A stretch of DNA of 64,000 bases, taken from IMG/VR virus record IMGVR_UViG_3300008262_003982. One strand, written 5' to 3'. Shown piece by piece: positions 42,984 to 56,558 of this stretch. The translations under genes were made by a program, and so were the position numbers. Each line of letters begins with the position of its first letter. Within the stretch, counting starts at the first letter, position 1. The DNA is from a virus. Taxonomy: Duplodnaviria; Heunggongvirae; Uroviricota; Caudoviricetes. The notes below the pieces were generated by a model. That model saw only the letters and a list, made by a program, of their open reading frames with translations, did not search any database and was not told where the DNA came from.

Positions 42984-43008
42984 CAAACACTTAGCATTTT
43001 TGTATAAT
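42980..43008 (+). promoter_or_regulatory. promoter TTGACA-N17-TATAAT
   Basis: Sequence motif upstream of 43038. Confidence 0.5.
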
Positions 43009-43037
43009 AATTCTATACAAAATAGAAAGGGTATGCT

Positions 43038-43418
43038 ATGGAATTTCTTCCAGTATTAGAACTAATTGATCGACTCTGCATTGCCAGAGTAAAACATGCA
43101 CGAACCAAAGGCGCCAACCAAGTTGAACTTGATTGGTACGAGGACAAGTTTCGACAACTACCACAAAGCGCAGAACTAGATGAGGACATTCAAGCAATGA
43201 CCGACATCCATCATGCTATCTGGGATCTAGAATGGCAGCTCAAATCAGGCGTGGAGCAAATGTTGAGCCTTCAGGAGATTGGTCGCCGAGCCATTGCCAT
43301 TAGAGATCATAACAACAAACGTATTGCTTACAAAAATTCTGTTGCCAGCATTTTAGGGCATCCTGTAAAAGAAATCAAACATGACCACCTGGCCGACGGA
43401 ACAGTTGACACTAAATAG
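43038..43418 (+). CDS. hypothetical protein
   Basis: 126 aa ORF with an AAAGGG SD. Confidence 0.45.
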   Translation: MEFLPVLELIDRLCIARVKHARTKGANQVELDWYEDKFRQLPQSAELDEDIQAMTDIHHAIWDLEWQLKSGVEQMLSLQEIGRRAIAIRDHNNKRIAYKNSVASILGHPVKEIKHDHLADGTVDTK

Positions 43419-43441
43419 TTTTCCTGCTACAATGTAGCACA

Positions 43442-43513
43442 GGGCCAATAGCTTAATGGTAAAGCAACCGACTCATAATCGGTCGAGTCTTGGTTCAATT
43501 CCAAGTTGGCCCA
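43442..43513 (+). tRNA. tRNA-Met (anticodon CAT)
   Basis: Acceptor GGGCCAA/TTGGCCC, anticodon loop cuCAUaa, T-loop TTCAATT, CCA encoded. Confidence 0.8.
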
Positions 43514-43521
43514 CCAAACAT

Positions 43522-43593
43522 CTGGCGTTCGTTCAACGGATAGGACATGATTCTTCTAAAGTCATTATAGAGGTTCGATTCCTCTACGCCGGA
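43522..43593 (+). tRNA. tRNA-Arg (TCT)
   Basis: Acceptor CTGGCGT/ACGCCGG, anticodon loop cuUCUaa, T-arm AGAGGTTCGATTCCTCT. Confidence 0.75.
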
Positions 43594-43614
43594 CCATGTA
43601 TTAAATAACGCAAA

Positions 43615-43697
43615 GCCAGAGTGGTGGAATGGTATACACAGCAGACTTAAAATCTGCCGCTTGCAAGGGCATACGGGTTCGAGTCCCGTCTCTGGTA
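43615..43697 (+). tRNA. tRNA-Leu (TAA), type II
   Basis: Acceptor GCCAGAG/CTCTGGT, anticodon loop cuUAAaa, long variable arm, T-arm ACGGGTTCGAGTCCCGT. Confidence 0.8.
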
Positions 43698-43706
43698 CCA
43701 AACATT

Positions 43707-44240
43707 ATGAACAAAAGTCCTACTCGCGGAACCTTTCACAGTCAATGCAGAATTGAAGATGTCATTGCGGAAGGAGGAGATCCTGCCACTGACGAAGATG
43801 TTCAACGAGCTTTAGATCTTGAACGCATGATCAACGAACATCAGGCTCAACGCGAAGCCGACGAACGGTGGCGAGAAAACAATCTTGAATATGATTTGCG
43901 TAGCACCAAGTGGGTTTGCGACAAAGCCAAGGCCAGCGATACCTACGCTCAAAACATCTACGCAGCCTTGTGCAATCAAGACTGGCAACGCAACGAAGTA
44001 TGGCCTTTGCTAAAGGGAGAGACCTACAGTTGTTCGTGGCGCTATGCCGGGGGTATTGTTGCCGACATGCGTGAACAAGGTGACTATATTGATTGGTACT
44101 GTTCGGGCATAGGCGATGGACTGGGCAATGGTGATGCTGACGGTGTTAAAAGATATGTACCCGAAGGACATGTCACAGAAGAAATCCAGGAAGACTTTTT
44201 TAAGTTGGGCTGGATCCCAGTAGATAGCGGGGATGAATAA
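43707..44240 (+). CDS. hypothetical protein
   Basis: The listed ORF starts inside tRNA-Leu. The first ATG after the tRNA is at 43707. 177 aa. Confidence 0.45.
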   Translation: MNKSPTRGTFHSQCRIEDVIAEGGDPATDEDVQRALDLERMINEHQAQREADERWRENNLEYDLRSTKWVCDKAKASDTYAQNIYAALCNQDWQRNEVWPLLKGETYSCSWRYAGGIVADMREQGDYIDWYCSGIGDGLGNGDADGVKRYVPEGHVTEEIQEDFFKLGWIPVDSGDE

Positions 44241-44390
44241 ATAGGTATGTGCTCAATCCCATAAAAAAACTACAAGAAAATCTAGCCCGAGACTTGGTCA
44301 GTCTGGAGGACACAGACTTGGTGTCGGAACAACAACTAGACAAAATTACTGATGCATACGCACAAGTGTATGACATCATCTCCAAAGCAG

Positions 44391-44419
44391 TTGACAAGCC
44401 CAAAGAATAAATATATACT
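44391..44419 (+). promoter_or_regulatory. promoter TTGACA-N17-TATACT driving tmRNA precursor
   Basis: Sequence motif immediately upstream of the acceptor piece. Confidence 0.5.
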
Positions 44420-44455
44420 GCGAGTTATTGCTGTATGAAGCCGAGAGAAAAGTGT

Positions 44456-44490
44456 TCTGGACGGGGGTGCGAATCCCCCCAGGTCCACCA
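44456..44490 (+). ncRNA. ssrA: tmRNA acceptor piece 3' end (T-arm plus 3' acceptor strand plus CCA)
   Basis: T-stem GGGGG/CCCCC with loop TGCGAAT. CAGGTCC pairs with GGGCCTG at 44706, with one G·U. Discriminator A and an encoded CCA. Confidence 0.7.
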
Positions 44491-44705
44491 TAAGGAAGTT
44501 TAATGATAGGTTATGTTTTATTTTTGTTATTTTGGTTAGTGTTTGGTGTATTTTATTTTACACGTGATACCACATTGGACGAAGAGAAAATAAAAAACTG
44601 TGAGTTATGGTAATATGGAAAATTTAGCAAAATTTTTATTAATTGTTTTTCCAATATTATGCTTGTTGTTAACAACATTAAGCGTAGATTAAGTTTCTTT
44701 ATGAT

Positions 44706-44866
44706 GGGCCTGACCTAGATTCGACAGGGCAAAGAGTAACAGAGTGGACAGCACGGTAGGCGATGACCGTAAATCAAGCAAAACTTTTATCTGCAAATGA
44801 TGAAAAATTCTTGATGGCCGCTTAAGGTCGTCTAGGGTAGGAAATACCTCGTAACAGAAACCACCA
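44706..44866 (+). ncRNA. ssrA: tmRNA coding piece (5' acceptor strand, D-like GAUUCGAC, tag ORF)
   Basis: GGGCCUGACCUAGAUUCGACAGGG matches the tmRNA 5' consensus GGGGCUGAUUCUGGAUUCGACGGG. Tag frame GCA AAT GAT GAA AAA TTC TTG ATG GCC GCT TAA gives ANDEKFLMAA. Confidence 0.7.
44793..44825 (+). other. tmRNA tag-peptide reading frame (A)NDEKFLMAA-stop
   Basis: Resume codon GCA. The ...AA-stop ending is typical of SsrA degradation tags. Confidence 0.65.
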
Positions 44867-44894
44867 AAATGGCTGCGAAAGTAGCCATTTTCTT
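44867..44894 (+). terminator. rho-independent terminator
   Basis: AAAATGGCT-GCGAAAGT-AGCCATTTT hairpin followed by TTTCTTT. Confidence 0.6.
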
Positions 44895-44921
44895 TGACAT
44901 TCTCAGTGTTTGTGCTATATA
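44893..44921 (+). promoter_or_regulatory. promoter TTGACA-N17-(T)ATATAAT for porin gene
   Basis: Sequence motif. Confidence 0.5.
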
Positions 44922-44971
44922 ATACTCTATGATCGACATTTGATCATTTCATTAACAAGGAAAAATTACTT

Positions 44972-45862
44972 ATGAAGAAAGTTCTAATTGCGTTGACCCT
45001 GGCAGTTGCTGGTGTTGCAAGCGCACAAGTTGGTATCTATGGTCGTGTTGGCACTTACCTTGACAACACCAAAACTGGTGCTTCCACCGTGCAAGGCATG
45101 GCCAATGACTTGAGTCACTTTGGCATTCGTGCTACTGAAAACTTAGGTGGCGGATTAACAGCTCGTGCCACATACGAGACCGGCATCCAAGCCAACAGCC
45201 CAGACACTGGTACTGACACTAGACTTGGCGATCGCCAAAGCACCGTGGGTATTGCTCACAAAATGGGTAGCGTTGATCTTGGTCGCAATGTTCACACTCA
45301 CTTCTTGGCCATCAGCGACAATGATCCATTTGGCACATTGATTGGTAGCTCAGCTGCCGACGTGCATAACCTGCGTGGTTTGCGTTTGAGCAATGCCGCT
45401 TTCACTTCTGTGAACTTTGGCAATGTCTCTGCTAACTTTGATCGTAGCACTGGTGCTGTTGGCACTGCCGCTGATCCTTATGCCGCATCCGTGATTGCCG
45501 CAGTTGGACCTGCTGTGTTGACTTATGCTCGTTACGAAGCTGGCGCAGAAACCAGTGACGTGTTGGCTGCTCGTGCTAAATTTGGTGCAACCACTGTGTT
45601 TGCCAGCGCAAGCGACAACAAAGGCGTTGCTGCCAACACCAACCGTGCTCAGTTGGTCGGCGTGGCACACAAACTTGGTGGACCAGTCACAGTGAAGGCC
45701 AGCTATGGTCGCATTGAAAATGGCATCAAGAGTTACAACGTAGGTGCTGAGTATGCTTTCAGCAAAAAGACCTATGCACAAGTTTTGTATCGTACAGTTG
45801 AGGGAACCTCAGCAGCCACTGATGTCAAACAAGTAGCAGGCGGGTTGGTCGTACAGTTCTAA
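44972..45862 (+). CDS. outer-membrane general porin (Gram-negative Porin_4-like beta-barrel)
   Basis: Signal peptide MKKVLIALTLAVAGVASA. AQVGIYGRVGTYLDN...ATENLGGGL matches the N-terminal strands of Neisseria/Burkholderia-type porins. C-terminal ...VVQF (terminal Phe). Confidence 0.7.
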   Translation: MKKVLIALTLAVAGVASAQVGIYGRVGTYLDNTKTGASTVQGMANDLSHFGIRATENLGGGLTARATYETGIQANSPDTGTDTRLGDRQSTVGIAHKMGSVDLGRNVHTHFLAISDNDPFGTLIGSSAADVHNLRGLRLSNAAFTSVNFGNVSANFDRSTGAVGTAADPYAASVIAAVGPAVLTYARYEAGAETSDVLAARAKFGATTVFASASDNKGVAANTNRAQLVGVAHKLGGPVTVKASYGRIENGIKSYNVGAEYAFSKKTYAQVLYRTVEGTSAATDVKQVAGGLVVQF

Positions 45863-45884
45863 AACAGAAGTAGTACAAACCAAA

Positions 45885-45913
45885 AAACCCGCCAAGTAGG
45901 CGGGTTTTTTTAT
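45885..45913 (+). terminator. rho-independent terminator
   Basis: AAACCCGCC-AAGTA-GGCGGGTTTTTTT. Confidence 0.8.
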
Positions 45914-45928
45914 GGCAGTAGACCAATA

Positions 45929-46070
45929 ATTGGATTGGTGCTATACTAGACACAAGTTAGAAAAACAGCGAAGTTTGTAAAGACCCTGCAACAAGGCGGG
46001 GCATTTACAAAACAAGTTGACCAGTAAAGCAGGAGATGCTATACTAGAGACTAGTTAGAAAACAAAGGCA
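45929..46070 (+). promoter_or_regulatory. tandem repeated promoter-like elements (...GGTGCTATACTAGACACAAGTTAGAAAAACA / TTGACC-N17-GATGCTATACTAGAGACTAGTTAGAAAACA)
   Basis: Two copies of about 30 nt starting GCTATACTAGA. Each is followed by a strong hairpin (46001..46038 and 46106..46140). Confidence 0.4.
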
Positions 46071-46380
46071 GTTGATCGAAACTACTTTGAAGTTCGTTAA
46101 AAATTTAATTTTGTATAGTGCCCCAGATTAAGTTCTGGGCACTATATGTAAACACATTAGGGTTACCTAGTCCGTTAGGGGTGAACAAAGGCTGATTCGA
46201 GCCGGATACCCATGAAGCAGGAGGGCCTAAGAGTAGCGCGAGACACCATCGAGCGTGAGGGATAAGGCTACACCAAACTCCAGGAAGGCGGCGGAACTAC
46301 TGGGCCTGTAATGAGGTCTTGATGCAAGTTGGTGATGCGTGTCAAGAACTTCCCTAATGTGTTTTCATATAGTGAACTAT

Positions 46381-46452
46381 GGAGCGTTCGTCTATCGGTT
46401 AGGACACAAGCCTTTCACGCCTGTAAGAGGGGTTCGATTCCCCTACGCTCTA
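46381..46452 (+). tRNA. tRNA-Glu (TTC)
   Basis: Acceptor GGAGCGT/ACGCTCT, anticodon loop cuUUCac (one mismatch in the anticodon stem), T-arm AGGGGTTCGATTCCCCT, CCA encoded. Confidence 0.6.
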
Positions 46453-46658
46453 CCAAATCCCGTTACTACTTTCGTTAAAGTAGCGTTTGATTAGCGATAG
46501 AGATCCGGTGGCAGAAGACCGTAAGCGTAAGGATGGAGACTACCCTTACAGACTCTGATAGGCAGAATCTCACTGCACACAGACTTTGAATAAATGAGAT
46601 GGACAGAGTAACTGCTCAATTAAGGGCTGGCGTGGAACCCAGTAGCTTATCCTAATTT

Positions 46659-46730
46659 GGTCTCAAGGTGTTCATGGACGCACACAGCACTGTCACTGCT
46701 GAGGAGGGGGATCGTTACCCCCTGGGACCG
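46659..46730 (+). tRNA. tRNA-Asp (GTC)
   Basis: Acceptor GGTCTCA/TGGGACC, anticodon stem CAGCA/TGCTG with loop cuGUCac. T-loop is the unusual ATCGTTA. CCA encoded. Confidence 0.6.
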
Positions 46731-46740
46731 CCAAGTTTAT

Positions 46741-46828
46741 GGACATGATGTGTCAATTACCTGAGGCTGGTATGAAACTTCGTAATAGCATACGAGGAAG
46801 AAGTGGGTTAGATTCCCATTGTTGTCCA
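46741..46828 (+). ncRNA. tRNA-like element (T-arm plus 3' acceptor plus CCA recognisable; non-canonical body)
   Basis: 3' end GTGGGTTAGATTCCCATTGTTGTCCACCA followed by the same AAGTTTATGG tail as tRNA-Asp. The 5' strand GGACATG pairs only 5 of 7. Confidence 0.3.
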
Positions 46829-46839
46829 CCAAGTTTATG

Positions 46840-46928
46840 GCGTCATAGGATGTAACGGAGTGTGGTTTGCTTCAACCTTGAATGATCATCAAGGTTTTCT
46901 TGCGTGGGTTCGAATCCCACATGATGCC
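46840..46928 (+). ncRNA. tRNA-like element (89 nt; acceptor GCGTCAT/ATGATGC and T-arm GTGGGTTCGAATCCCAC present; body contains 23-nt perfect palindrome)
   Basis: AACCTTGAATGATCATCAAGGTT palindrome at 46866..46888 where the anticodon arm should be. No clean D-arm. Confidence 0.3.
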
Positions 46929-47532
46929 TCAAGTTTGAAGCCACATCGCCTGGACACTTCCTCGCAAGAGCACTAGGTCCTGCAACCGTGGCTTCTCCCC
47001 GACGTTCCGCTTGGTTAGCGGATACTGTGACCCGCAGGATAAGAAGTGAGGTGACTCTCAAGGGTGGTAGTCTTCTTACCGAAAGGCCGTTAGCAACACG
47101 ATAGCGGTCCCTGTCGGGAAGCGGGTGGAAGGTGTGTGAGAATTGCGGGGCAACCCAAGAGATGATGCACTACAATTACCGCCGGGGGATGCAGAGCAAC
47201 TAATTTTCCTGATGCTGGGCAGGACAAGGCCCAGCAGTCCTATCCCAAGGATCACCTGAGCCAGAACTCAGGGCCGATGAGCATCGCAAGCCCTACCACG
47301 GGTGCCGATGGACGATAAATTGGGAAGCAGTAGTTAGCAGTGGGAGGATTTGATTTTCAAATCCGAACTTTTAGTTTTTATAGTCAAGCACCGATAAAGG
47401 TATCGTGTAAGGACGCTTACGCTATTCGGGTCCAACCGGCCGGGAACGGATCCTAATATAACTGCTATCGGCTATTGCACTCTTAGCGGAGGACGCATAA
47501 ATTGAGCATCTCTCGGTGCTTGACTATAGAAT

Positions 47533-48504
47533 CTATTCAATGTCAATTTGGCAAAAACTGTTTTTGCCGCCAAATCCAAAATTGGCCTTGAGTATGCGTT
47601 TGCCCGGAAACGGCACAGCATCTACGATGATCCTTGAATCTTTGACTATGAGATCACCAGCTAACACATTGGGTCTTAGGGTTTTTGCACGGTAATCGTC
47701 AAAACTCATGCACATTTCAATGGCGCCGCTGGCTGAGATACAGTGCCCTATGCGGCTTTTGTAGCTGACAATAGGTATGTCTTTGTGAACTAAAGAATTA
47801 AAAACATTGTACTCAAATTGATCTCCCACTGGAGTGCCTGTTGCATGTGCATTCCAAAAATCAATGGTGTCAAAATTGATGCCAGAAATATCTCTGGCCA
47901 ATTGGTGCGCATCACCTGGATTGGCTATGAGTGTGGGGTTGGTACGAAAGATATAATTGCTGATTGTGGCAAATGCACTCATGTTGAATTTTACACTTGG
48001 ATGTTTTATCAACATTGCAGCCATGCCTCTACCCATTCGAAATCCAGTACTGGTTGAGTCAAATGCTCTTCCTGAGGATTGATCCAATGCACCCATACTG
48101 GCAAATCGCCACATGTGAAGTTCGTCATCAACTAAATTATCAGCACAAAAAACAATCACTGGTAATTGGTGTTGCAAGCTCACCATGGATGCAGTGTACA
48201 AGGCATGCATGCTTCCACTGCATTCTGCTACCACATTCGTAACAAATCCGTTGAGATGCAATTTTGTTGCCACAAGACTGACCAAGGCGTCAATGGTACT
48301 GTTCCTAAGTTCAGTAGGACGTCCTCGTTTTTTATTGAGCTCAAAAAAGTCTCGGCTGGGTTTATTTGTTGGTATCAATCCTCCTTTGGAAGAAGTTACC
48401 ATTGGCCAGTGTGGCTGAACAATGTTTGCTAGACATGTGCTATCAACGAATTGTTCAATGTTCCAGTCGAGACTGTGGTGATAGGTTAAGATTTCAGTGA
48501 TCAT
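47533..48504 (-). CDS. beta-ketoacyl-(ACP) synthase-like condensing enzyme (KAS; thiolase fold)
   Basis: FWNAHATGTPVGD (the HGTGT-type His motif), C-terminal NFGFGGKNS (the GFGG motif), and a candidate active-site Cys in AECSGS. 323 aa, shorter than FabF. Confidence 0.65.
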   Translation of the reverse strand: MITEILTYHHSLDWNIEQFVDSTCLANIVQPHWPMVTSSKGGLIPTNKPSRDFFELNKKRGRPTELRNSTIDALVSLVATKLHLNGFVTNVVAECSGSMHALYTASMVSLQHQLPVIVFCADNLVDDELHMWRFASMGALDQSSGRAFDSTSTGFRMGRGMAAMLIKHPSVKFNMSAFATISNYIFRTNPTLIANPGDAHQLARDISGINFDTIDFWNAHATGTPVGDQFEYNVFNSLVHKDIPIVSYKSRIGHCISASGAIEMCMSFDDYRAKTLRPNVLAGDLIVKDSRIIVDAVPFPGKRILKANFGFGGKNSFCQIDIE

Positions 48505-48595
48505 GTGGGGTACTTATTTGCCCACTGTAACACGACTGCAGAAAACTGTTACAGACTATTTTGGATAGATAAACAACAAATTTATCCAAAACTGT

Positions 48596-48624
48596 TTGAC
48601 AACAAAAGACGTTTGTCTTACAAT
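48596..48624 (+). promoter_or_regulatory. promoter TTGACA-N17-TACAAT
   Basis: Sequence motif. Transcribes into the ORF-poor GC-rich region. Confidence 0.5.
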
Positions 48625-48625
48625 A

Positions 48626-49620
48626 GATACATAGGGCAGTTTATTGTCCTGTGCAGTATGGTTCGCCCAGCTGTACGAAGAATAACTGGGGTGACCCAGC
48701 CAAAGGATGTATGCCTACATAAGTCCGCCAGCAATGGTTCATGTAAACAAGCCTGCTCAGGTCCGTGAGGATCCGATCACTGATAAGACCGGTGGTTGTA
48801 ACAATGACGCTGGGAGTATAGGAAAGAGCTGTAACTTACCGGCCCGCAAGGGTAACCGGAGTTGCAGAAAAGTAACAGGTGGTGCTGACTTCTATACAAA
48901 ACCAGCCCAGTTAATTGGTATGAGAAAGGGTAGCGTATCGGTCCGAGGGGTTGCACCCAAGGGCTCGTATGCAGTTTGAGTGGTTGGTGGAGGTACGCGA
49001 AAGCCGAGACCCGACACTGATCGCAAAAGACGTCTGAGTAGTTCGCAAGACAAAAGGAACGTGGTGTGTTGTATTTTGTATTCCAAAAGAGTATGAAGCA
49101 ACTGAGTCAGCACATCGCAGTAGGTTGATATAGCTCATCGTAGAGCAATTCCCTGTTAAGGAATAGGCTGTGGCTTCAAAACCACTATCTAACATAAAAG
49201 CAAAGACTGACTCGGTCATGTGTGAAAAGTATCTAATGCTGTAGCCGCAAGGCAATACAGTCAGACGTAACTCGCAAGGTGAAATCTGTTTATACTGGAA
49301 GTTTCGTAACTGTTTAGCGACAGTGAATGGCTCTAAAGGTCAACGGGATAGATGGTGTAGAGTAGCATGTGATGACAAGACTACTGCCTGTCTTTAAAAA
49401 CGGCGATACTGGTAACAGACTGTGATACATAGCAATATGGTTGCAGTGGAAATCGGAAGAAAGCAGACTCGCAAGGTTTGTAATAATGTCCGAGGTGTTA
49501 CTGGGTTAGGATGTATTCTCAGTCCGCCACTTTATATACAAACGCACTCCGTACCCGTTGGTGGTTGCTCAATTCAATGAATTGTTCCCCAAGCATAGAG
49601 TGTGTTTCTATATAAATAAT
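48626..49620 (+). ncRNA. candidate large structured ncRNA (about 1 kb, GNRA tetraloop-rich)
   Basis: Sits downstream of the promoter at 48596. No credible ORF. Repeated cGCAAg/cGAAAg hairpins: CCCGCAAGGG, GCGAAAGC, GCCGCAAGGC and CTCGCAAGG, the last occurring twice. Confidence 0.4.
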
Positions 49621-49624
49621 TCAA

Positions 49625-49696
49625 TCGCGGGGTACGTCAGCGGTAGACCACCAGGCTCATAACCTGGGAGACGGAGGTTCGATTCCTTCCCCCGCA
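49625..49696 (+). tRNA. tRNA-fMet (initiator-like, CAT)
   Basis: C1·A72 mismatch (CGCGGGG/CCCCGCA), which is typical of bacterial initiators. Anticodon arm CCAGG-cuCAUaa-CCTGG. CCA encoded. Confidence 0.7.
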
Positions 49697-49735
49697 ACCA
49701 ATTCAGCCGAAAGGCTAAATAACTTTAACACAGTG

Positions 49736-49764
49736 GTTGACCTCAAAAGGTAAATACTGTACAA
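49736..49764 (+). promoter_or_regulatory. promoter TTGACC-N17-TACAAT
   Basis: Sequence motif. Confidence 0.5.
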
Positions 49765-49765
49765 T

Positions 49766-49946
49766 AGGACTTATGATGAAAACACAATATTGTTCACTGC
49801 TACCCAAGTTTGCCCAGACACCAGTTTGGTCACACGCCTATGGTCGCATGAATAGCATTCCAGGAGGCAGAGGGTCCTAAGTAGTATACAACCGTATCTT
49901 ACCCAAGGACCCAGGCGTAAAAACCCTGGGTTTTTTCATTTAGTGC
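49766..49946 (+). ncRNA. candidate small RNA (promoter-to-terminator unit, about 180 nt)
   Basis: Bounded by the promoter at 49736 and the terminator hairpin CCCAGG-CGTAAAAA-CCCTGGGTTTTTT at 49918..49946. Could alternatively encode a 35-aa peptide starting MMKTQYCS... Confidence 0.4.
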
Positions 49947-50118
49947 AACGGCAACGCGAGCCTGTATCACTCTAAACTACAAATGGGCGGCCTCGGGGAT
50001 GGCTTATGTTCTTGTACATAAAAAAATCCGAGCGTATTAAAACATTCTTTACAAACAGGCAGCCTAAGTAGTTTAGAATGTTTTAATACACACATTCGCA
50101 AGAGTGTGTTAAAATTAT

Positions 50119-50189
50119 GTCTCGGTGGTGTAATGGCAGCATGACGGTCTCCAAAACCGTTCGTGGGGGTTCGAGTCCCTCCCGGGATG
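50119..50189 (+). tRNA. tRNA-Trp (CCA)
   Basis: Anticodon arm ACGGT-cuCCAaa-ACCGT, T-arm GGGGGTTCGAGTCCCTC, acceptor GTCTCGG/CCGGGAT. Confidence 0.75.
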
Positions 50190-50198
50190 CCAAAATTT

Positions 50199-50270
50199 GG
50201 GCTGGTAGTGATAATGGGAGCACAGGGGCTTTGCAAGCCTTTAGTCGGGGTTCGATCCCCCGCCGGTCCA
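50199..50270 (+). tRNA. tRNA-Ala (TGC)
   Basis: Acceptor GGGCTGG/CCGGTCC, anticodon loop uuUGCaa, T-arm CGGGGTTCGATCCCCG. Confidence 0.75.
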
Positions 50271-50278
50271 CCAAATAT

Positions 50279-50368
50279 GGAGCAATTGATGCTATGGCGT
50301 GTGCATCGGCGGACTGTAAATCCGTCCCCTCGTGGTAAACATTCTTGGTTCGACTCCAAGTTGCTCCA
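50279..50368 (+). tRNA. tRNA-Tyr (GTA), type II
   Basis: Acceptor GGAGCAA/TTGCTCC, anticodon loop cuGUAaa, long variable arm, T-arm CTTGGTTCGACTCCAAG. Confidence 0.8.
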
Positions 50369-50411
50369 CCATATTTTTGTAGTAGGCTCGAGTGCCTACT
50401 AAGTAGATTAT

Positions 50412-50484
50412 TCCCTAGTAGCACAGCGGTAGTTGCACTTGACTGTTAATCAAGGTGTCCGTGGTTCGATCCCACGCTGGGGAG
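50412..50484 (+). tRNA. tRNA-Asn (GTT)
   Basis: Anticodon arm CTTGA-cuGUUaa-TCAAG, T-arm CGTGGTTCGATCCCACG. Confidence 0.8.
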
Positions 50485-50492
50485 CCAAGTCA

Positions 50493-50579
50493 GGAAGACG
50501 GGCAGGACGGTAATGCAGCAGATTGCTAATCTGTAGATTCTAGTAATAGGGTCATAGGGTTCGACTCCCTAGTCTTCCA
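50493..50579 (+). tRNA. tRNA-Ser (GCT), type II
   Basis: Acceptor GGAAGAC/GTCTTCC, anticodon loop uuGCUaa, long variable arm. Confidence 0.75.
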
Positions 50580-50588
50580 CCACAATTC

Positions 50589-50659
50589 GCCCTACTAGTA
50601 CAATGGTAGTACACTGGTTTTGTAATCCTGTGATGGCAGTTCGATTCTGTCGTGGGGCA
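50589..50659 (+). tRNA. tRNA-Thr (TGT) (anticodon stem with two mismatches)
   Basis: Acceptor GCCCTAC/GTGGGGC, D-arm GTAC/GTAC, loop uuUGUaa, T-arm GGCAGTTCGATTCTGTC. Confidence 0.55.
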
Positions 50660-50873
50660 CCAAGTTTTGAGAGTGTCAGCAAGAGAAAGACACGCTAGGA
50701 AGATTCTTCGAAGGTCAACCTAGTGTAAAGCACGGGCGGCGTGATTCCGTACACAACTAAGTAATCAATCTGTGTGTTAAGTATTCCAAGTGACGTATCA
50801 CCCTCCCGGCCGGCTTTATTACACGGGTCAATGGTAGCAATAACAGTGATGCTACTACTCTCAAATTCAATAC

Positions 50874-50948
50874 ACCACCTTAGCTCATTTGGATTAGAGC
50901 ACTGTGCTACGAACGCAGGGGCGGGGAGTTCGAATCTCTCAGGTGGTA
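50874..50948 (+). tRNA. tRNA-Arg (ACG)
   Basis: Acceptor ACCACCT/AGGTGGT, anticodon loop cuACGaa, T-arm GGGAGTTCGAATCTCTC. Confidence 0.75.
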
Positions 50949-50991
50949 CCAACACATAGCCATACTCTCCCTTGACGAGTTAGGTCCCTGG

Positions 50992-52116
50992 CTATTGTAT
51001 AACTTCTTGCGCTAAATTTTCTAGCACACCAAACACTGAGTTGATTGTGTGTTGTGTGATGTTGCGCAGTCGAATCAGCTGGCTTGTTCGAGACACAAAC
51101 TGTTCTCGTTGAGCAGGTGAGTGCTGTATTGTTTCTAGCATACTACATGTATCAGTCATTAACTGTTTTTGTGTTTTGGTAAGTTTTGCAACTGTTAGTT
51201 GTTTTTGTATAACTGCAATCAACTGCTGACGTTCGAGAGTGGTAAGCACTTCTGACTGTAGCCAAACAGGATAAGATAAAGGGATCACATTAAATGGCAG
51301 TCGACGGACATTGGCGTATTCAAACAGTTCAATGATATTTTGCAAATTTAAAAATTGCAACACTGCCGACAAATGTATCTTTGCTCCGGGCAATGCCTGT
51401 TGTAGTGCAACAATGTTTGATTGCACAACTGACCATTGTGCCGGATAGCGTAAAAATTCAAATGTTGGCCCAGTACCGTCTACACTAACCATCACATCAA
51501 GGTCAGATATTTTTTGTAACCGCTCAAGATGTTTTTTGGTTAGTTGAGTGGCATTGGTAATAATTCGTGTTTTAAGATTTTTTTCAATAACCGCATCGAG
51601 CAATTCAATATTGTGTTTGGTTACAAAAAATTCGCCGCCAATAAAACCTATTGATTTAAGGTCTGGCAACTGTTTAATAACTTCAAGTGCATGATCTTCG
51701 TGATTGATCACTATTGATTGTTTAATCCATCCAAGTTTGGCATATTCCTGACCTGATTTGGTACTATGAGAAGGATTGCACGACAAGCAACTGAGATTAC
51801 ATGCGTTGCCAGGGAAAATTTCCAAGTCAACAATTTTAGTTTTGGTTTCATGCTCAAACACTTTAATATACTTGTTTCGGATACTAGGCAAGTTATTATC
51901 TTCGTCTACTTTGCATGCCTTGCATCCATCTGGCAATGATTCTTTTGTAAGCAAATGTTGCTGAAGAGACGCTAGTTCAGATGATTGCAAATAATCATTA
52001 ATCGTTGCGTACTGCTTGATAGGTTTGTAATTGCAACAAGGCCTAACAGTTGGATTGAGATCTTTATCAGTATACATATGAATACTAACAAATGGTTTTG
52101 GACAATATTTGTTCAT
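50992..52116 (-). CDS. radical SAM protein (additional N-terminal Cys cluster; function unknown)
   Basis: CNLSCLSC (CxxxCxxC) plus an N-terminal CPKPF...RPCC. 374 aa. Confidence 0.6.
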   Translation of the reverse strand: MNKYCPKPFVSIHMYTDKDLNPTVRPCCNYKPIKQYATINDYLQSSELASLQQHLLTKESLPDGCKACKVDEDNNLPSIRNKYIKVFEHETKTKIVDLEIFPGNACNLSCLSCNPSHSTKSGQEYAKLGWIKQSIVINHEDHALEVIKQLPDLKSIGFIGGEFFVTKHNIELLDAVIEKNLKTRIITNATQLTKKHLERLQKISDLDVMVSVDGTGPTFEFLRYPAQWSVVQSNIVALQQALPGAKIHLSAVLQFLNLQNIIELFEYANVRRLPFNVIPLSYPVWLQSEVLTTLERQQLIAVIQKQLTVAKLTKTQKQLMTDTCSMLETIQHSPAQREQFVSRTSQLIRLRNITQHTINSVFGVLENLAQEVIQ

Positions 52117-52177
52117 TCAAATACTTATTTTAAAAAGGAGAGTCTGTCATGAATAGTGACAAGAGTGACAAGATACC

Positions 52178-52249
52178 GGGGGTGTGGTGAAACGGTATCA
52201 CAGCAGACTTTTAATCTGCCAATTTCGGGTTCGAATCCCGGCGCCCCTA
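52178..52249 (+). tRNA. tRNA-Lys (TTT)
   Basis: Anticodon arm GCAGA-cuUUUaa-TCTGC, T-arm TCGGGTTCGAATCCCGG. Confidence 0.8.
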
Positions 52250-52340
52250 CCATATAAAAACACATTCAACTAATGACACGGGTGGTAGCCGTGTATCTTA
52301 GTGGGCTAACGAACTACTACGCCTGAGTGTGTTCCTATAT

Positions 52341-52412
52341 GGTGACGTTAGTTTAGTGGCAAAACCGCGGGTTGTGATTCCGCTGTCATGAGTTCGATTC
52401 TCATACGACACC
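52341..52412 (+). tRNA. tRNA-His (GTG) with encoded G-1
   Basis: The extra 5' G pairs with discriminator C. Anticodon arm GCGGG-uuGUGau-TCCGC. D-stem GTTT/AAAC. Confidence 0.75.
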
Positions 52413-52420
52413 CCAGACAT

Positions 52421-52509
52421 GCCCCTATAGTTTAATGGTAAAACGGCGGATTTATATCCCGTAAGCAACAGATAATTGGTTCATCTGGGTTCGACTCCCG
52501 GTGGGGGTA
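52421..52509 (+). tRNA. type-II tRNA, anticodon uncertain (possibly TAT)
   Basis: Acceptor GCCCCTA/TGGGGGT and T-arm CTGGGTTCGACTCCCGG are good. The anticodon arm is irregular. Confidence 0.4.
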
Positions 52510-52517
52510 CCAAACAT

Positions 52518-52589
52518 GGATGTATAGCATAATGGTAGTGCGCCTCCTTCATACGGAGTCAAGTGGTAGTTCGACTCTACTTACATCCA
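52518..52589 (+). tRNA. tRNA with CAT anticodon (elongator Met or Ile2/lysidine type)
   Basis: Acceptor GGATGTA/TACATCC, loop uuCAUac, T-arm GGTAGTTCGACTCTACT. Confidence 0.7.
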
Positions 52590-52604
52590 CCAAATAGTTT
52601 TTGT

Positions 52605-52675
52605 TCGGGTATAGTGTAATGGTAACACTACAGACTTTGACTCTGTCATTCTAGGTTCGAGCCCTAGTACCCGTG
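52605..52675 (+). tRNA. tRNA-Gln (TTG)
   Basis: Anticodon arm ACAGA-cuUUGac-TCTGT, D-stem GTGT/ACAC, T-arm CTAGGTTCGAGCCCTAG. U1·U72 mismatch. Confidence 0.7.
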
Positions 52676-52685
52676 CCAAGTTTTT

Positions 52686-52752
52686 GCCGTGTAGCTCAGA
52701 GGAAGAGCAATCGCTTGATAAGCGATAGGTCGACATTTCGAAACAAGCGGCT
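52686..52752 (+). tRNA. tRNA-Ile (GAT)-like with aberrant T-arm (possible pseudogene)
   Basis: Acceptor 5' strand, D-arm GCTC/GAGC and anticodon arm ATCGC-uuGAUaa-GCGAT are canonical. No pairable T-stem. Confidence 0.35.
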
Positions 52753-52794
52753 GTATTCTTAGCTGGTAGTATTTTGACAGCAATAGGATTTGTA

Positions 52795-52950
52795 GTGATT
52801 GTGGCGGCGGCTGTTGCTGTCAACAACATCATAAGTCGTTACTGGAAGCCTGTAAAAATTTTCACAGCAGACAGTTGGAATCTGGGCCACGGCACAAGAT
52901 TTGCTGAACCCCATGAACTTGACAAAAGTCAAGAACCCAAAGTAAAATAA
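52795..52950 (+). CDS. possible small hydrophobic peptide (about 52 aa, GTG start)
   Basis: An AGGA SD lies 6 nt upstream of the GTG. Hydrophobic N-terminal segment VIVAAAVAVNNII. Lies between tRNAs. Confidence 0.2.
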   Translation: MIVAAAVAVNNIISRYWKPVKIFTADSWNLGHGTRFAEPHELDKSQEPKVK

Positions 52951-52956
52951 AATACA

Positions 52957-53030
52957 CGGAGTATAGCACAGCCTGGTAGTGCGCCTGGTTTGGGACCAGG
53001 AGGTCCGAGGTTCGAACCCTCGTACTCCGA
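52957..53030 (+). tRNA. tRNA-Pro (TGG)
   Basis: Acceptor CGGAGTA/TACTCCG, anticodon arm CCTGG-uuUGGga-CCAGG. Confidence 0.8.
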
Positions 53031-53039
53031 CCAATAGAT

Positions 53040-53112
53040 GTAGGTGTGTGCCGAATGGCTAGGCGCCGGATTGCAAATCCGTATAATGCAGGTTCGAGTC
53101 CTGTCACCTACT
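53040..53112 (+). tRNA. tRNA-Cys (GCA)
   Basis: Acceptor GTAGGTG/CACCTAC, loop uuGCAaa. Confidence 0.7.
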
Positions 53113-53309
53113 CCAAGTTTAGAAAAGATGTGTGAAAAACTCATTGACTATGGGCCCAACTGCTAGGGACCTTAACGTTATCCAGGTGCCGCTGGGATTA
53201 AGTTCCAGACTGCTAGTCACAGTCGAACCATGTGCCAGGAAGGATGTGAGCTACCCGAAAGGATGTTCAGTACCTTTAAACGCAAAGCAGTATCTTTTTT
53301 AATTTTTTA

Positions 53310-53397
53310 GGAAGTGTGGCAGAGTTGGTTGATTGCAGCAGTCTTGAAAACTGCCGGCTCCGAAAGGGGTCCGTGAGTTCGAATCTCACCACTTCCA
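53310..53397 (+). tRNA. tRNA-Ser (TGA), type II
   Basis: Acceptor GGAAGTG/CACTTCC, anticodon arm GCAGT-cuUGAaa-ACTGC, long variable arm. Confidence 0.8.
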
Positions 53398-53405
53398 CCA
53401 TATAC

Positions 53406-53477
53406 GGGTGATTAGCTCAGCGGTAGAGTCGCTGCCTTACACGCAGTTTGTCGGGAGTTCGATCCTCTCATCACCCA
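53406..53477 (+). tRNA. tRNA-Val (TAC)
   Basis: Acceptor GGGTGAT/ATCACCC, loop cuUACac. Confidence 0.7.
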
Positions 53478-53485
53478 CCATTCAT

Positions 53486-53558
<73 letters not shown>

Positions 53559-53562
53559 CCAG

Positions 53563-53766
53563 TTAGATTTTAGGTGTAAGATGTTTGATGCGTTGATTCA
53601 CCACATGCTCGACTGAATTGTCGTTGTAGGCCATAGCAGCCAGCAAGCCTGTTAGATATCCGCGCTCGTAGGCCAACTGTTGTTGTTTGGTCACAAACGT
53701 TTTGCCCAATGTTTCCATTGCAAGCAAACGCTCTATTTTTTTGATGGAGTCTTGTTTGGTTTGCAT
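53563..53766 (-). CDS. hypothetical small protein (67 aa)
   Basis: Minus-strand ATG at 53766. The longer listed ORF runs across a tRNA. Confidence 0.3.
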   Translation of the reverse strand: MQTKQDSIKKIERLLAMETLGKTFVTKQQQLAYERGYLTGLLAAMAYNDNSVEHVVNQRIKHLTPKI

Positions 53767-53777
53767 GATGTATTTAA

Positions 53778-53851
53778 GCCCCGGTGACGGAATTGGTATA
53801 CGTGTTGGTCTTAGAAGCCAAATTTTAGGAGTTCGAGTCTCCTCTGGGGCA
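53778..53851 (+). tRNA. tRNA with Leu anticodon TAG but short (type-I) variable loop
   Basis: 74 nt. Acceptor GCCCCGG/CTGGGGC, anticodon arm TTGGT-cuUAGaa-GCCAA, discriminator A. Paralogue of the tRNA at 55057. Confidence 0.6.
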
Positions 53852-53892
53852 CCAAATTTAATGTAGCTTGCACAGACTTTTAAATACACTGT

Positions 53893-54666
53893 ATGGCTAC
53901 AATTACTCAAATAGAACAGTACTGGGATCAACAACCTTGTAATATAAAGCATGGGTTGGCACCAGAAGGCACAGAAGAATTTTGGAACAACATCAATCGT
54001 CGTAGATGGTTTGTTGGGCCGCATTTGTGGCAGTTGGCCGACTTTGAAAACTGCAAGGGACGGCGGGTGCTAGAACTAGGATGCGGCATTGGATCTGATG
54101 CTGAACAATTTGTACGGCATGGTGCTGAATACGTTGGGATTGATCTTAGCAGTCGTAGCATAGAACTTTGTGAGCAGAGATTTACTGTTATGGGATTAGA
54201 TGCTGAATTCTATCACATGGACGCAGGCGACAGTCAGCGTGTTGCAGGGCTAGGACAATTTGATATGGTGTATGCTTGTGGTGTATTGCATCACTATCCC
54301 AATGTAGAACAAGTGGTCAGCAATGCTTACGCAAGTCTAGCATCTGATGGGGAGTTTCGTTTCCTAGTGTATGCTCGCAACAGTTGGAAATGGGCAATGA
54401 TTCAGTCTGGGCTGGACCAGTTTGAAGCGCAAGACAACTGCCCATATGCCAGAGTTTACAGTCAAGGAGAAATACAAAAACTGCTGGACGTACACTTTGA
54501 TATCAAAAGCATCAAGCAAGATTACTGTTTTATGTACAATGTAGAGCAGTACAAACAAGGAAATTATGTGTTGGAACCATGGTTTGCTGCCATGAGCGAT
54601 GCACAACGCCAGGCTGTCAATCAACAGCTAGGTTGGCATTTAAGCGTGATTGCCGCAAAGCAATAA
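53893..54666 (+). CDS. class I SAM-dependent methyltransferase
   Basis: Motif I VLELGCGIGSD. 257 aa. Confidence 0.6.
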   Translation: MATITQIEQYWDQQPCNIKHGLAPEGTEEFWNNINRRRWFVGPHLWQLADFENCKGRRVLELGCGIGSDAEQFVRHGAEYVGIDLSSRSIELCEQRFTVMGLDAEFYHMDAGDSQRVAGLGQFDMVYACGVLHHYPNVEQVVSNAYASLASDGEFRFLVYARNSWKWAMIQSGLDQFEAQDNCPYARVYSQGEIQKLLDVHFDIKSIKQDYCFMYNVEQYKQGNYVLEPWFAAMSDAQRQAVNQQLGWHLSVIAAKQ

Positions 54667-54685
54667 ATACAAAAAGGAGATTATT

Positions 54686-54985
54686 ATGGCTATAGTTGCT
54701 AAAACTGTGTTGGTGTATGCGTCTGTAGAAGATCGAGAAACAGCAAGAACTATTATCCCTTGGAGTAATTATTTACAAATTGTTGGAGACGGTGGGCATG
54801 ATGACTTTACTGTGGTTGGTACCGCAGGTCTCGACCCGTCAGAACTAGGTCCCACCCATTTAACTGTAACTCGAAAATGGGAAAACAAAAAAAATGCAGA
54901 AGACTTTGTTGAATGGATGACTGCACAACTTTCAACTTTTAGTGTTGTTCCTGTGTCATTTACTGTAGAAGATTATACAGAATAA
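54686..54985 (+). CDS. hypothetical protein
   Basis: ATG after an AAGGAG SD. 99 aa. Confidence 0.45.
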   Translation: MAIVAKTVLVYASVEDRETARTIIPWSNYLQIVGDGGHDDFTVVGTAGLDPSELGPTHLTVTRKWENKKNAEDFVEWMTAQLSTFSVVPVSFTVEDYTE

Positions 54986-55016
54986 CGCATGATCAGATTG
55001 TCTGACACAAGTTATA

Positions 55017-55050
55017 AAAACAGTAGGCCAGTCCTACTGTTTTTTTTTTT
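55017..55050 (+). terminator. rho-independent terminator
   Basis: ACAGTAGG-CCAGT-CCTACTGT followed by eleven T residues. Confidence 0.75.
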
Positions 55051-55056
55051 GCAAAT

Positions 55057-55130
55057 GCCCCGGTGACGGAACTGGAATACGTGTCTCTCTCAAAAGGAGA
55101 ATTCTGAGGGTTCGAATCCCTCCTGGGGTA
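55057..55130 (+). tRNA. tRNA with Leu anticodon CAA, type-I body (paralogue of 53778)
   Basis: The first 27 nt are almost identical to 53778. Anticodon arm TCTCT-cuCAAaa-GGAGA, discriminator A. Confidence 0.6.
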
Positions 55131-55156
55131 CCACTATCAATAAATATTTTTGAAAG

Positions 55157-55633
55157 TTGAAAATGAAAAAGCTCGATATAGCATCAGTAGCAGAATTTAT
55201 CCAGAAACAAACGCCCGAAACTCGCATCTACCTTGGCTGCGACTCTGAACGAATCAAAATTGACGGTACCTGGTATGCCGACTATGTGTTGGCCATTGTG
55301 GTACACATCAACGGCAACAACGGCTGCAAACTGTTTGGCGAAGTTCAACGCGAGCGTGTGTGGGACGTGAAACCAGGCAAACCTGCCATGCGTTTGATGA
55401 CCGAAGTGTACAAGGTTTCAGAACTGTATTTGAAACTGGCTGACGTACTAGAAGGCCGTCAAGTTGAAGTTCACTTGGACATCAACCCAGACGAACAATA
55501 CGGTTCAAGTTGTGTGATCTCGCAAGCTGTGGGCTACATCAAAGGAACATGCAATGTGATTCCGTTTGTGAAGCCAGAAGCATTTGCAGCATCATACGCG
55601 GCAGATAGATTTAAGAGTTTACGAGCTGCCTAA
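55157..55633 (+). CDS. hypothetical protein
   Basis: 158 aa ORF. Confidence 0.45.
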   Translation: MKMKKLDIASVAEFIQKQTPETRIYLGCDSERIKIDGTWYADYVLAIVVHINGNNGCKLFGEVQRERVWDVKPGKPAMRLMTEVYKVSELYLKLADVLEGRQVEVHLDINPDEQYGSSCVISQAVGYIKGTCNVIPFVKPEAFAASYAADRFKSLRAA

Positions 55634-55646
55634 TAAGTAACGGAAT

Positions 55647-55717
55647 GCAGGATTAGTTTAGGGGTAAAATAGAACCTTGCCAAGGTCCAGTCACCAGTTC
55701 GATTCTGGTATCCTGCT
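55647..55717 (+). tRNA. tRNA-Gly (GCC)
   Basis: Acceptor GCAGGAT/ATCCTGC, loop uuGCCaa, T-arm ACCAGTTCGATTCTGGT. Confidence 0.65.
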
Positions 55718-55724
55718 CCACTTA

Positions 55725-55795
55725 GCTCTCATAGTATAAAGGCATTACACTACATTGGTAATGTAGAAACACTGGATCGTTACCAGTTGGGAGCA
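55725..55795 (+). tRNA. tRNA-Thr (GGT)
   Basis: Anticodon arm CTACA-uuGGUaa-TGTAG. T-loop is the unusual ATCGTTA. Confidence 0.65.
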
Positions 55796-55803
55796 CCAAT
55801 TCT

Positions 55804-55875
55804 CGGCCCTTGGTGAAATGGATATCATGCTTGTCTTCGAAACAAGCGGTGGGAGTTCGATCCTCTCAGGGCCGG
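55804..55875 (+). tRNA. tRNA-Arg (TCG)
   Basis: Acceptor CGGCCCT/AGGGCCG, anticodon arm CTTGT-cuUCGaa-ACAAG. Confidence 0.75.
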
Positions 55876-55924
55876 CCAATAAAAAACCTCAAACTCCGTC
55901 ATAGAAAAATACAATAGCAAAATG

Positions 55925-56557: not shown

Positions 56558-56558
56558 C

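Follow-up and report, generated by a model that had tools for sequence, protein, structure and literature searches.

A probable full-length GOLLD RNA with a tRNA-like linker in the tRNA island of a jumbo phage

What does a tailed phage make from about one kilobase (kb) of DNA that carries its own promoter, holds no credible open reading frame (ORF) and lies just ahead of a transfer RNA (tRNA) gene? In this study we address this question for positions 48596-49620 of a 64,000-nucleotide (nt) stretch of DNA from a virus of the Caudoviricetes (IMG/VR record IMGVR_UViG_3300008262_003982), the whole of which is referred to below as the window. The initial annotation had proposed for this region a large structured RNA, possibly one whose 3′ end arises by release of the downstream tRNA, or else a degenerate intron. 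We conclude, with a probability of about 0.93, that the region is a full-length GOLLD RNA of about 900 bases with a promoter, two domains, a tRNA-like linker and an NCCA end, located in the tRNA island of a jumbo phage.

The Rfam scan of positions 42000-57000 returned RF02032 (GOLLD) at 49061-49525 on the plus strand, with 204.1 bits against a gathering score of 150 and E = 8.1e-57; the match covers model positions 1-416 of 416 and is not truncated, while no other large RNA family was matched in this interval. Because the RF02032 model is limited to the 3′ domain, the 5′ 430 nt of the region receive no Rfam hit, and with a model of this extent the 5′ 400 nt of such loci will keep surfacing as unexplained, ORF-poor structured regions. 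GOLLD RNAs belong to the largest and least understood non-coding RNAs of bacteria and phages, and their cage structure was solved only in 2025. They exceed 800 nt, occur in phages and prophages near tRNA islands, and combine a universally conserved 3′ part (P14-P27) with a variable 5′ part (P1-P13), the linker J13/15 sometimes containing a tRNA; they assemble without protein into homo-oligomeric nanocages, known as 10-, 12- and 14-mers, in which the linker faces the cavity (PMC12286853; PMC12990946). The main parts of the locus are as follows.

48596-48624, plus strand: sigma-70-type promoter with the -35 box TTGACA (48596-48601), a 17-nt spacer and the -10 box TACAAT (48619-48624)
48633-48676, plus strand: 5′ leader with two hairpins, GGGCAG..UGUCCU and a UUCG-capped one
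48655-49060, plus strand: GOLLD 5′ domain of the window-type ("W") subtype, with 17 helices including a large multi-branch domain at 48751-48931
49061-49529, plus strand: GOLLD 3′ domain (P14-P27 in literature numbering), ending in TCCGCCA
49121-49196, plus strand: linker J13/15, filled by a tRNA-like element (49124-49194)
49532-49615, plus strand: conserved long hairpin of 84 nt that separates GOLLD from the tRNA, its stem 17 bp long and its interior variable
49626-49700, plus strand: initiator-like tRNA-Met (CAT) with encoded CCA, called by ARAGORN and scoring 55.1 bits in Rfam

Blastn of the region against 50,697 deposited phage genomes gave a single weak match, to the P14/linker part of DSS3_MAL1, a known GOLLD carrier. 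Direct pairwise alignment and blastn with env-38, a marine metagenomic GOLLD RNA solved by electron cryomicroscopy (cryo-EM) as a 14-mer (PDB 9MEE; Kretsch et al. 2025, PMC12286853), gave nothing significant (best E = 0.13). Since GOLLD RNAs are conserved in structure rather than in sequence, the family was analysed by profiles and covariation. A viral contig collection was scanned with the 3′-terminal GOLLD signature common to the window and env-38, which gave at least 118 loci; 14 of these align to the window with 77-87% identity from about 48700 to 49546, the 5′ half included. In the alignment of these 15 sequences (A1) the conserved block extends from about 48655 to 49529, and RNAalifold assigns to it 249 pairs, of which 103 show compensatory double changes. 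For the 5′ half (103 pairs), 99.4% of cells are paired, as compared with 35-43% when the partners are slid, and 53 pairs are compensatory, as compared with 2-11; the corresponding values for the 3′ half (126 pairs) are 99.5% against 35-40% and 46 pairs against 2-9, and in neither half did any of 500 shuffles reach them. Both halves covary, and the stretch from approximately 48655 to 49529 is therefore a single conserved structured non-coding unit, in line with the large RNA under its own promoter that had been proposed. It is also mobile as a unit, with 13-15 loci matching the element and about none matching the flanks, and in all related loci the window-type 5′ domain passes without interruption into the 3′ domain. 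An RNAalifold long-range pairing of columns 105-107 with 858-860, linking the 5′ end to the 3′ domain, was discarded as it shows no compensatory change.

An iterated nhmmer profile of the 3′ domain collected 103 of 119 sequences, among them env-38 at E = 5e-56. Through this family profile env-38 was mapped on the window and compared with the cryo-EM contact table, and the following elements of the 3′ domain came into play.

49103-49111, plus strand: bulge UGAGUCAGC in the 3′ strand of P14, which pairs with 49205-49214 and closes the linker
49196-49214, plus strand: post-linker strand AAAAGCAAAGACUGACUCG; its GC 49200-49201 contributes the J13/15 half of bridge B7, and its positions 49205-49214 supply the 3′ strand of the pseudoknot helix
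49271-49279, plus strand: L20 hairpin with a CGCAA pentaloop, whose GC 49274-49275 is complementary to GC 49200-49201
49309-49324, plus strand: L21a hairpin with loop UAGC and GC 49317-49318, the symmetric kissing loop of bridge B8
49328-49342, plus strand: L21b hairpin with loop CUAAA and UA 49334-49335, the symmetric kissing loop of bridge B9

The helix between the P14 bulge and the post-linker strand has 9 pairs, is 100% paired and shows a U-A to A-U swap in 7 of 14 sequences. It forms a pseudoknot relative to the outer P14 stem, and env-38 has a complementary pair, TGATAGAC and GTCTATCA, at the corresponding places. For bridge B6 the A-minor donors are the L14 adenosines A49086 and A49087, which lie in an invariant CCAAAAG. 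In B7 of env-38, G546-A547 of J13/15 pairs with U617-C618 of L20 (PMC12286853), so that GA/UC stands against GC/GC in the window, a compensatory difference; GC/GC was found in 22 of 22 scorable window-type sequences. The L21b loop, according to Kretsch et al., was too conserved in their alignment for a covariation test (PMC12286853). Among 44 unique window-type sequences its dinucleotide is GC in 28, UA in 15 and AA in 1, while GA and UC were never seen against about 10 and 9.5 expected under independence, a comparison counted per unique sequence and not per independent switch. As GC and UA are both self-complementary, this pattern fits a symmetric loop-loop contact, and the occurrence of GC or UA, never a mixture, gives comparative support to the symmetric B9 kissing contact. 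Taken together, the sequence motifs of bridges B5-B9 (PDB 9MEE) are all present in the window, which amounts to compatibility at the level of sequence and not to a structural demonstration.

Bridge B5 belongs to the 5′ domain, where two elements are of importance.

48876-48887, plus strand: invariant hairpin CAG-GUGGUG-CUG with its GUGGUG loop at 48879-48884, the counterpart of the env-38 loop that forms inter-subunit bridge B5
48897-48904, plus strand: invariant unpaired CAAAACCA, ten bases downstream of the hairpin, with ACCA at 48901-48904 as the candidate partner for the GUGGUG loop of an adjacent chain

In env-38, G340, G341 and U342 of one chain contact A372, C371 and A369 of the next (PMC12286853). 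The copy of the env-38 sequence taken from the supplement of Kretsch et al. has 815 of 833 nt (18 bases are missing), and its numbering was calibrated on 61 residues of the contact table, 59 of which fit with an offset of +4 across 203-415. In the recalibrated numbering the B5 residues correspond to positions 3-5 of the GUGGUG loop and to the ACCA within a UACCAG loop. The CAG-GUGGUG-CUG hairpin is also present in the consensus structure of the env-38-type 5′ domain (119 pairs, 84 with compensatory change), and in both 5′ types it forms the best-conserved block and directly follows a long variable hairpin within a three-tier stem. The window and env-38-type loci share here an identity of up to 16 nt (TAACAGGTGGTGCTGA, 48873-48888), whereas none of 200 shuffles reached 15 nt and 2 reached 14. 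Judging from these motifs, CAAAACCA and GUGGUG may represent the retained B5 cap contact; both partners are invariant and cannot covary, and for this reason the retention is put forward as an inference. The same 8-mer CAAAACCA occurs in the T-loop of the linker element (49177-49184), and its reading as a deliberate duplicate of the 5′ motif was rejected, as it is not conserved in the nearest relatives (L121 has CAAAATCA and L160 has CAAACCCA).

The assignment of the 5′ domain is the point on which the full-length GOLLD interpretation is most open to objection, and the evidence that weighs against it is collected here. Iterated nhmmer with a profile of the window 5′ domain halts at 18 sequences, these being 18 of the at least 118 GOLLD loci first listed, and never reaches env-38, while a profile seeded from the env-38 5′ domain collects 72 loci with no overlap with the 18. 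The consensus helix layouts of the two 5′ types differ outside one sub-domain. The equivalence of the cap to that of env-38, as far as it can be argued from sequence, would rest on one hairpin, its partner motif and local topology; single-residue env-38 assignments could be off by one owing to the 18 bases missing from the copy; and most contact motifs are invariant in the subfamily, which makes them compatible with the solved contacts, not proven by covariation. As the two profiles never meet, the window carries, by sequence, a distinct 5′-domain subtype. The published GOLLD alignment (Kretsch supplement) comprises the 3′ domain only and was not usable for classification of the 5′ domain. One may thus ask whether the locus is a chimera, with a GOLLD 3′ domain fused to an unrelated structured 5′ RNA, perhaps of other quaternary form or function, and besides the separate profiles and layouts this idea draws on the differing 3′ end (NCCA against a U-tract) and on the linker that is always tRNA-sized. 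The two types nevertheless share their most conserved hairpin in the same local setting together with the ACCA partner motif, and their 5′ domains are equal in size (about 400 nt) and in position directly 5′ of P14. Variable 5′ domains are already known for GOLLD RNAs (PMC12990946), and since even the sequence-only 3′ profile needed four iterations to reach env-38, the failure of the 5′ profile is weak evidence. We regard the chimera as unlikely; it is the only rival with real weight, and the class assignment would stay even if it were true.

The remaining explanations carry much less. That several independent small RNAs (leader, tRNA and others) merely adjoin each other is suggested by the tRNA or tRNA-like gene in the linker, the excision of which by RNase P and RNase Z would split the transcript, and by the neighbouring 46456-47530 region, which is a mosaic of separate modules. 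We consider this highly improbable: in every window-type locus the 5′ domain, P14, the linker and the rest of the 3′ domain follow one another without a break, in one order and at constant spacing, there is a single promoter, the solved GOLLD RNAs are single chains (PMC12286853; PMC12990946), and the covarying bulge helix spans the linker and would hold both RNA parts together even after excision of the insert. A frameshifted or unrecognised protein-coding gene, to which the overlapping ORFs of 87-114 amino acids (aa) might point, is practically out of the question. The initial annotation saw no credible ORF, and indeed the longest stretch free of stop codons on either strand has 142 aa, a length that dinucleotide shuffles also reach (mean 96.5, maximum 198), and Pfam matches none of the three ORFs within the region (114, 90 and 87 aa); the substitutions among relatives are base-pair-preserving double changes, the indels are not multiples of three, and the 3′ half fits an RNA covariance model. 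Equally negligible is a degenerate group I or group II intron or another self-splicing element, which would account for a large, GNRA-rich, ORF-free region beside tRNA genes, where introns sometimes sit. Against it, no Rfam intron family was matched at E <= 1 over 42000-57000, as compared with 8e-57 for GOLLD, there is no intron-encoded protein, and the element has its own promoter and moves as a unit among unrelated flanks in different phages instead of lying within a split gene.

The GNRA hairpins quoted in the initial annotation were found at all five places named.

48843: CCCGCAAGGG
48997: GCGAAAGC
49244: GCCGCAAGGC
49271 and 49468: CTCGCAAGG

Both copies of CTCGCAAGG, contrary to their first description, are CGCAA pentaloops and not GNRA tetraloops, and they align with conserved CGCAA pentaloops of the GOLLD consensus. 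The enrichment of GNRA-capped hairpins (at least 3 bp) is moderate but real: 7 were counted against 2.45 +/- 1.5 in 1000 shuffles, 9 of which reach 7.

The promoter of this GOLLD RNA was correctly recognised from the start. It agrees with the consensus at 11 of 12 positions and has a predicted start near 48631, and promoter-like sites are not enriched across the region (29 found against 23.8 +/- 4.6 expected). Its position is conserved: in 20 of 64 unique window-type loci TTGACN-N16-18-TANNNT with diverged spacers precedes the GUGGUG hairpin by 252-329 nt, the distance in the window being 278 nt. The other window-type loci have a tRNA directly upstream, and the RNA is therefore probably made there within a tRNA polycistron. 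The 5′ leader is common to some relatives only (L029, L001, L106, L030); it folds with -18.3 kcal/mol (z = -3.3), and its stem GGGCA/TGTCC is GGGTG/CATCC in L030, a compensatory change read from the alignment.

As to distribution, at least 80 viral contigs, many of them 140-425 kb long, carry the 5′-domain signature. Of the contacts in the solved cap, this widespread 5′ subtype retains the GUGGUG/ACCA contact alone. In 185,579 species-representative genomes the window-type signature has one match, at 7950-7982 of L119 (CAMTVO010000041.1), and the subtype is therefore essentially confined to uncultured large phages. L119 is a 26-kb contig of an 'uncultured Nitrospiraceae' metagenome-assembled genome (MAG), probably a phage contig binned into the MAG, and as the sole match it allows no host assignment. 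A separate observation concerns 14 viral loci (L004, L006, L018, L036, L046, L062, L068, L069, L081, L082, L088, L104, L108, L109) which match the 3′-terminal signature with a 97-nt spacing and are reached neither by the iterated 3′-domain profile nor by either 5′-domain profile; these may represent another, more divergent group of GOLLD RNAs, or may match by chance.

The tRNA-like element in J13/15 (49124-49194) lies within the region and had been overlooked by the initial annotation. It scores 50.6 bits with the Rfam tRNA model, as compared with 29, and its minimum-energy fold is a cloverleaf, but ARAGORN run on the window does not call it as a tRNA. It has an Asn-type anticodon loop (CUGUUAA), a D-loop (ATCGTA) without GG and a T-loop of 8 nt. 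In the first relatives ARAGORN places a tRNA within the GOLLD linker in nine cases (6 Asn-GTT and 3 Lys-TTT). All 33 unique window-type linkers are 87-96 nt long, and a tRNA is called in 25 of them (17 Asn-GTT, 5 Lys-TTT, 2 Ile and 1 odd); in the clade of the window (with L030, L121 and L160) the insert is not called, though its T-stem is kept by compensatory change (GTGG/CCAC against GTGA/TCAC). A tRNA-sized insert, exchangeable in its identity, is thus found throughout the subfamily. Because the copy in the window is non-canonical and a normal tRNA-Asn (GTT) is present at 50412-50487, the insert is probably, as judged from its sequence, a tRNA mimic that serves as a structural element or as cargo and does not decode. 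A linker that in this subtype is always a tRNA or a tRNA mimic, together with the NCCA end, would tie the cage more closely to tRNA biology.

The 3′ end departs from what had been supposed, namely that the transcript extends to 49620 just before the tRNA. The conserved RNA stops at 49529, where its last hairpin is followed by NCCA (TCCGCCA, 49523-49529), and 49532-49615 is a separate conserved hairpin. The NCCA tail is present in 24 of 82 unique tails, all of the window type, while the env-38 type ends in GTTTT. As the RNA ends in NCCA and the phage tRNA genes encode CCA (read from sequence), we infer that the GOLLD 3′ end may be trimmed like that of a tRNA. Formation of this end through tRNA release is only partly plausible: the encoded NCCA at 49529 and the 84-nt hairpin intervene, so that RNase P cleavage at tRNA-Met would not by itself create it. 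The tail hairpin folds with -27.3 kcal/mol (z = -5.0), and none of 200 shuffles folds as well; its stem is 98.1% paired, as compared with 25-56% when slid, with compensatory change in 5 pairs. In L025 a tRNA-Gly stands in its place. No terminator-like site was detected at this hairpin, which may have a role in processing or termination, and reading of the sequence within it gave no acceptable -35 box for a sigma-70 promoter of tRNA-Met. The downstream gene is, as annotated, an initiator-like tRNA-Met, with a C1 x A72 mismatch (read from sequence) that is typical of initiator tRNAs, and tRNA-Met is also the downstream neighbour in L085, L029, L001, L106, L028 and L064.

Homology with the env-38 and Streptococcus agalactiae structures suggests that copies of this RNA would need no protein to assemble themselves into a closed nanocage of dihedral symmetry. 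Its ring would consist of the 3′ domains, held together by A-minor contacts of L14, by the kissing of L20 with J13/15 and by the symmetric kissing loops L21a and L21b; the 5′ domains would serve as caps, in part through the contact of the GUGGUG loop with ACCA, and the linker with its tRNA-like element would point into the cavity. The most likely role of GOLLD would be a function in the phage lytic cycle tied to tRNA or translation, in which the linker tRNA might be stored in, displayed by or released from the cage.

Among the known systems env-38 is the closest for comparison, as its 3′ domain is homologous to that of the window. The two RNAs have in common the P14 hairpin with a CAAAAG loop, the pseudoknot between P14 bulge and post-linker strand, the L20-J13/15 and L21a/L21b motifs, the GUGGUG hairpin with its ACCA partner, a size of about 830-900 nt and the vicinity of tRNA-Met. 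They differ in the rest of the 5′ domain, which is unalignable, in the linker (a 42-nt disordered loop in env-38, a 76-nt tRNA-like element in the window), in the end (a U-tract in the env-38 type, NCCA followed by a long conserved hairpin in the window) and in the contact dinucleotides (L21b GC and B7 GA/UC in env-38, UA and GC/GC in the window). The GOLLD RNA of S. agalactiae has 700 nt and forms a 12-mer (PDB 9L0R), its 3′ domain alone a 10-mer (9LMF), and changes of its 5′ domain alter the oligomer number while the 3′ ring is kept (PMC12990946). It has the same two-domain layout as the window RNA, and it offers a precedent on account of which the divergent 5′ domain of the window can be read as a variant cap. 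It lacks P9, P11a-c and P21b, whereas the window has both L21a and L21b hairpins, like env-38, and it resides in the chromosome or a prophage of a Gram-positive organism, unlike the RNA of the window.

For the GOLLD RNA of Mycolicibacterium/Mycobacterium, a tRNA-Phe embedded in J13/15, within a tRNA array, is reported (Morgado et al. 2020, cited in PMC12990946). The tRNA or tRNA-like element occupies the same single-stranded linker of the 3′ domain as in the window, and again within a tRNA array; the window insert is Asn-type and non-canonical, with Asn, Lys and Ile among the subfamily inserts, and it belongs to a jumbo phage of a Gram-negative bacterium (indicated by a porin gene) instead of an actinobacterial tRNA array. 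ROOL RNA (RF03087), which forms a 6- to 8-mer nanocage, is likewise large, ornate, phage-associated and near tRNA islands, and makes an RNA-only cage with an internal disordered linker (PMC12286853). Its sequence and fold are unrelated to those of the window RNA, and the Rfam search gave no ROOL match at E <= 1 over 42000-57000 nor at E <= 10 over 46040-47560.

The traits peculiar to this locus, namely its divergent 5′ domain, its tRNA-like insert and its place within a tRNA island, all vary in ways that are on record for the GOLLD class. The locus itself is categorically nothing new, and the comparative points are modest additions, not discoveries. A more far-reaching reading, which we hold to be doubtful, is that the window type constitutes a distinct architectural subclass, with an alternative 5′ cap, a constitutive tRNA cargo whose identity changes from phage to phage (Asn, Lys, Ile) and which in this phage has decayed to a tRNA mimic, and an NCCA-ending, tRNA-like minihelix with a processing hairpin. 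If this were true, assembly, maturation and perhaps opening of the cage would fall to the tRNA-processing enzymes, namely RNase P, RNase Z, 3′ exonucleases and the CCA-adding enzyme, and there would be an experimental handle on whether the GOLLD cage stores, protects or delivers tRNA.

The surroundings of this GOLLD RNA are those of a tRNA island. The window contains 29 tRNA genes and a two-piece (permuted) transfer-messenger RNA (tmRNA), and the GOLLD loci of the relatives also lie within tRNA arrays. Its DNA polymerase shares 47-51% identity with the enzymes of two phages of 470-490 kb, Sinorhizobium phage Phosso and Agrobacterium phage Atu_ph07, and megablast of 25 kb of the window against deposited phages returned nothing, that is, no near-identical deposited phage. 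The neighbouring features outside the GOLLD locus are listed below.

44377-44893, plus strand: two-piece (circularly permuted) tmRNA with the tag ANDEKFLMAA and an AT-rich insertion of about 190 nt
44972-45862, plus strand: host-like porin of Gram-negative type in the tRNA island (Porin_4, E = 3e-25)
46141-46370, 46449-46656 and 47358-47531, plus strand: non-coding modules found in L170 (87%), L158 (82%) and L150 (88%), respectively, with no Rfam match at E <= 10
46741-46832 and 46840-46933, plus strand: two tRNA-like units of about 92 nt with T-arm-like GGTT(A/C)GA(T/A)TCCC and CCA or TCA ends
47001-47211, plus strand: conserved structured RNA module of about 210 nt, not assigned to any Rfam family, with counterparts of 72-83% identity in at least 12 further phage tRNA islands that bear a GOLLD RNA
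47533-48504, minus strand: upstream neighbour, a host-like, truncated-looking beta-ketoacyl synthase-like protein of 323 aa with parts of both KAS domains
49737-49940, plus strand: promoter-to-terminator unit just after tRNA-Met, with TTGACC-17-TACAAT at 49737-49765
50992-52116, minus strand: host-like radical-SAM protein

The tmRNA scores 115 bits with Rfam tmRNA_permuted and 111.5 bits with beta_tmRNA, and it is preceded by TTGACA-17-TATACT at 44391. A possible kinship of 46456-47530 with the GOLLD region had been raised by the initial annotation and was not borne out: the best blastn value is E = 0.13, the GOLLD profiles match only 48679-49524 in the whole window, and 46456-47530, which has no Rfam match at E <= 10, is unrelated to the GOLLD RNA. 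It consists of several modules, each conserved on its own and met again in other tRNA islands with a GOLLD RNA, and is a mosaic, not one 1-kb RNA. The module at 47001-47211 has 46 pairs by RNAalifold, 98.5% paired as compared with 36-52% when slid, 18 of them compensatory against 0-7. It has the long invariant blocks GGGTGGTAGTCTT, GTCGGGAAGCGGGTGGA and TAATTACCGCCGGGGGATGCAGAGCA and, at the tip of a hairpin, an insertion that varies, and is a candidate for a new RNA motif. The module at 47358-47531 is bounded by a long inverted repeat, TATAGTCAAGCACCG ... CGGTGCTTGACTATAG. Both tRNA-like units are preceded by the spacer AAGTTTATGG, as is tRNA-Asp, and ARAGORN calls neither; the second (46840-46933) reaches only 20 bits with the Rfam tRNA model and is 94% conserved in L161, L131 and L123. 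These units may be unusual long-arm tRNAs or tRNA mimics.

Two minor observations may be added. In two distant window-type loci, L002 (1760-1828) and L111 (2089-2160), ARAGORN labels tRNAs of amber-suppressor type within the tRNA arrays as tRNA-Pyl (CTA), which may reflect stop-codon reassignment in those phages. In the window, the unit at 49737-49940 ends with the hairpin CCCAGG-CGTAAAAA-CCTGGG followed by TTTTTT (about 49907-49935, read from sequence), and as only a 47-aa ORF starting with TTG overlaps it, this unit is a possible small RNA.

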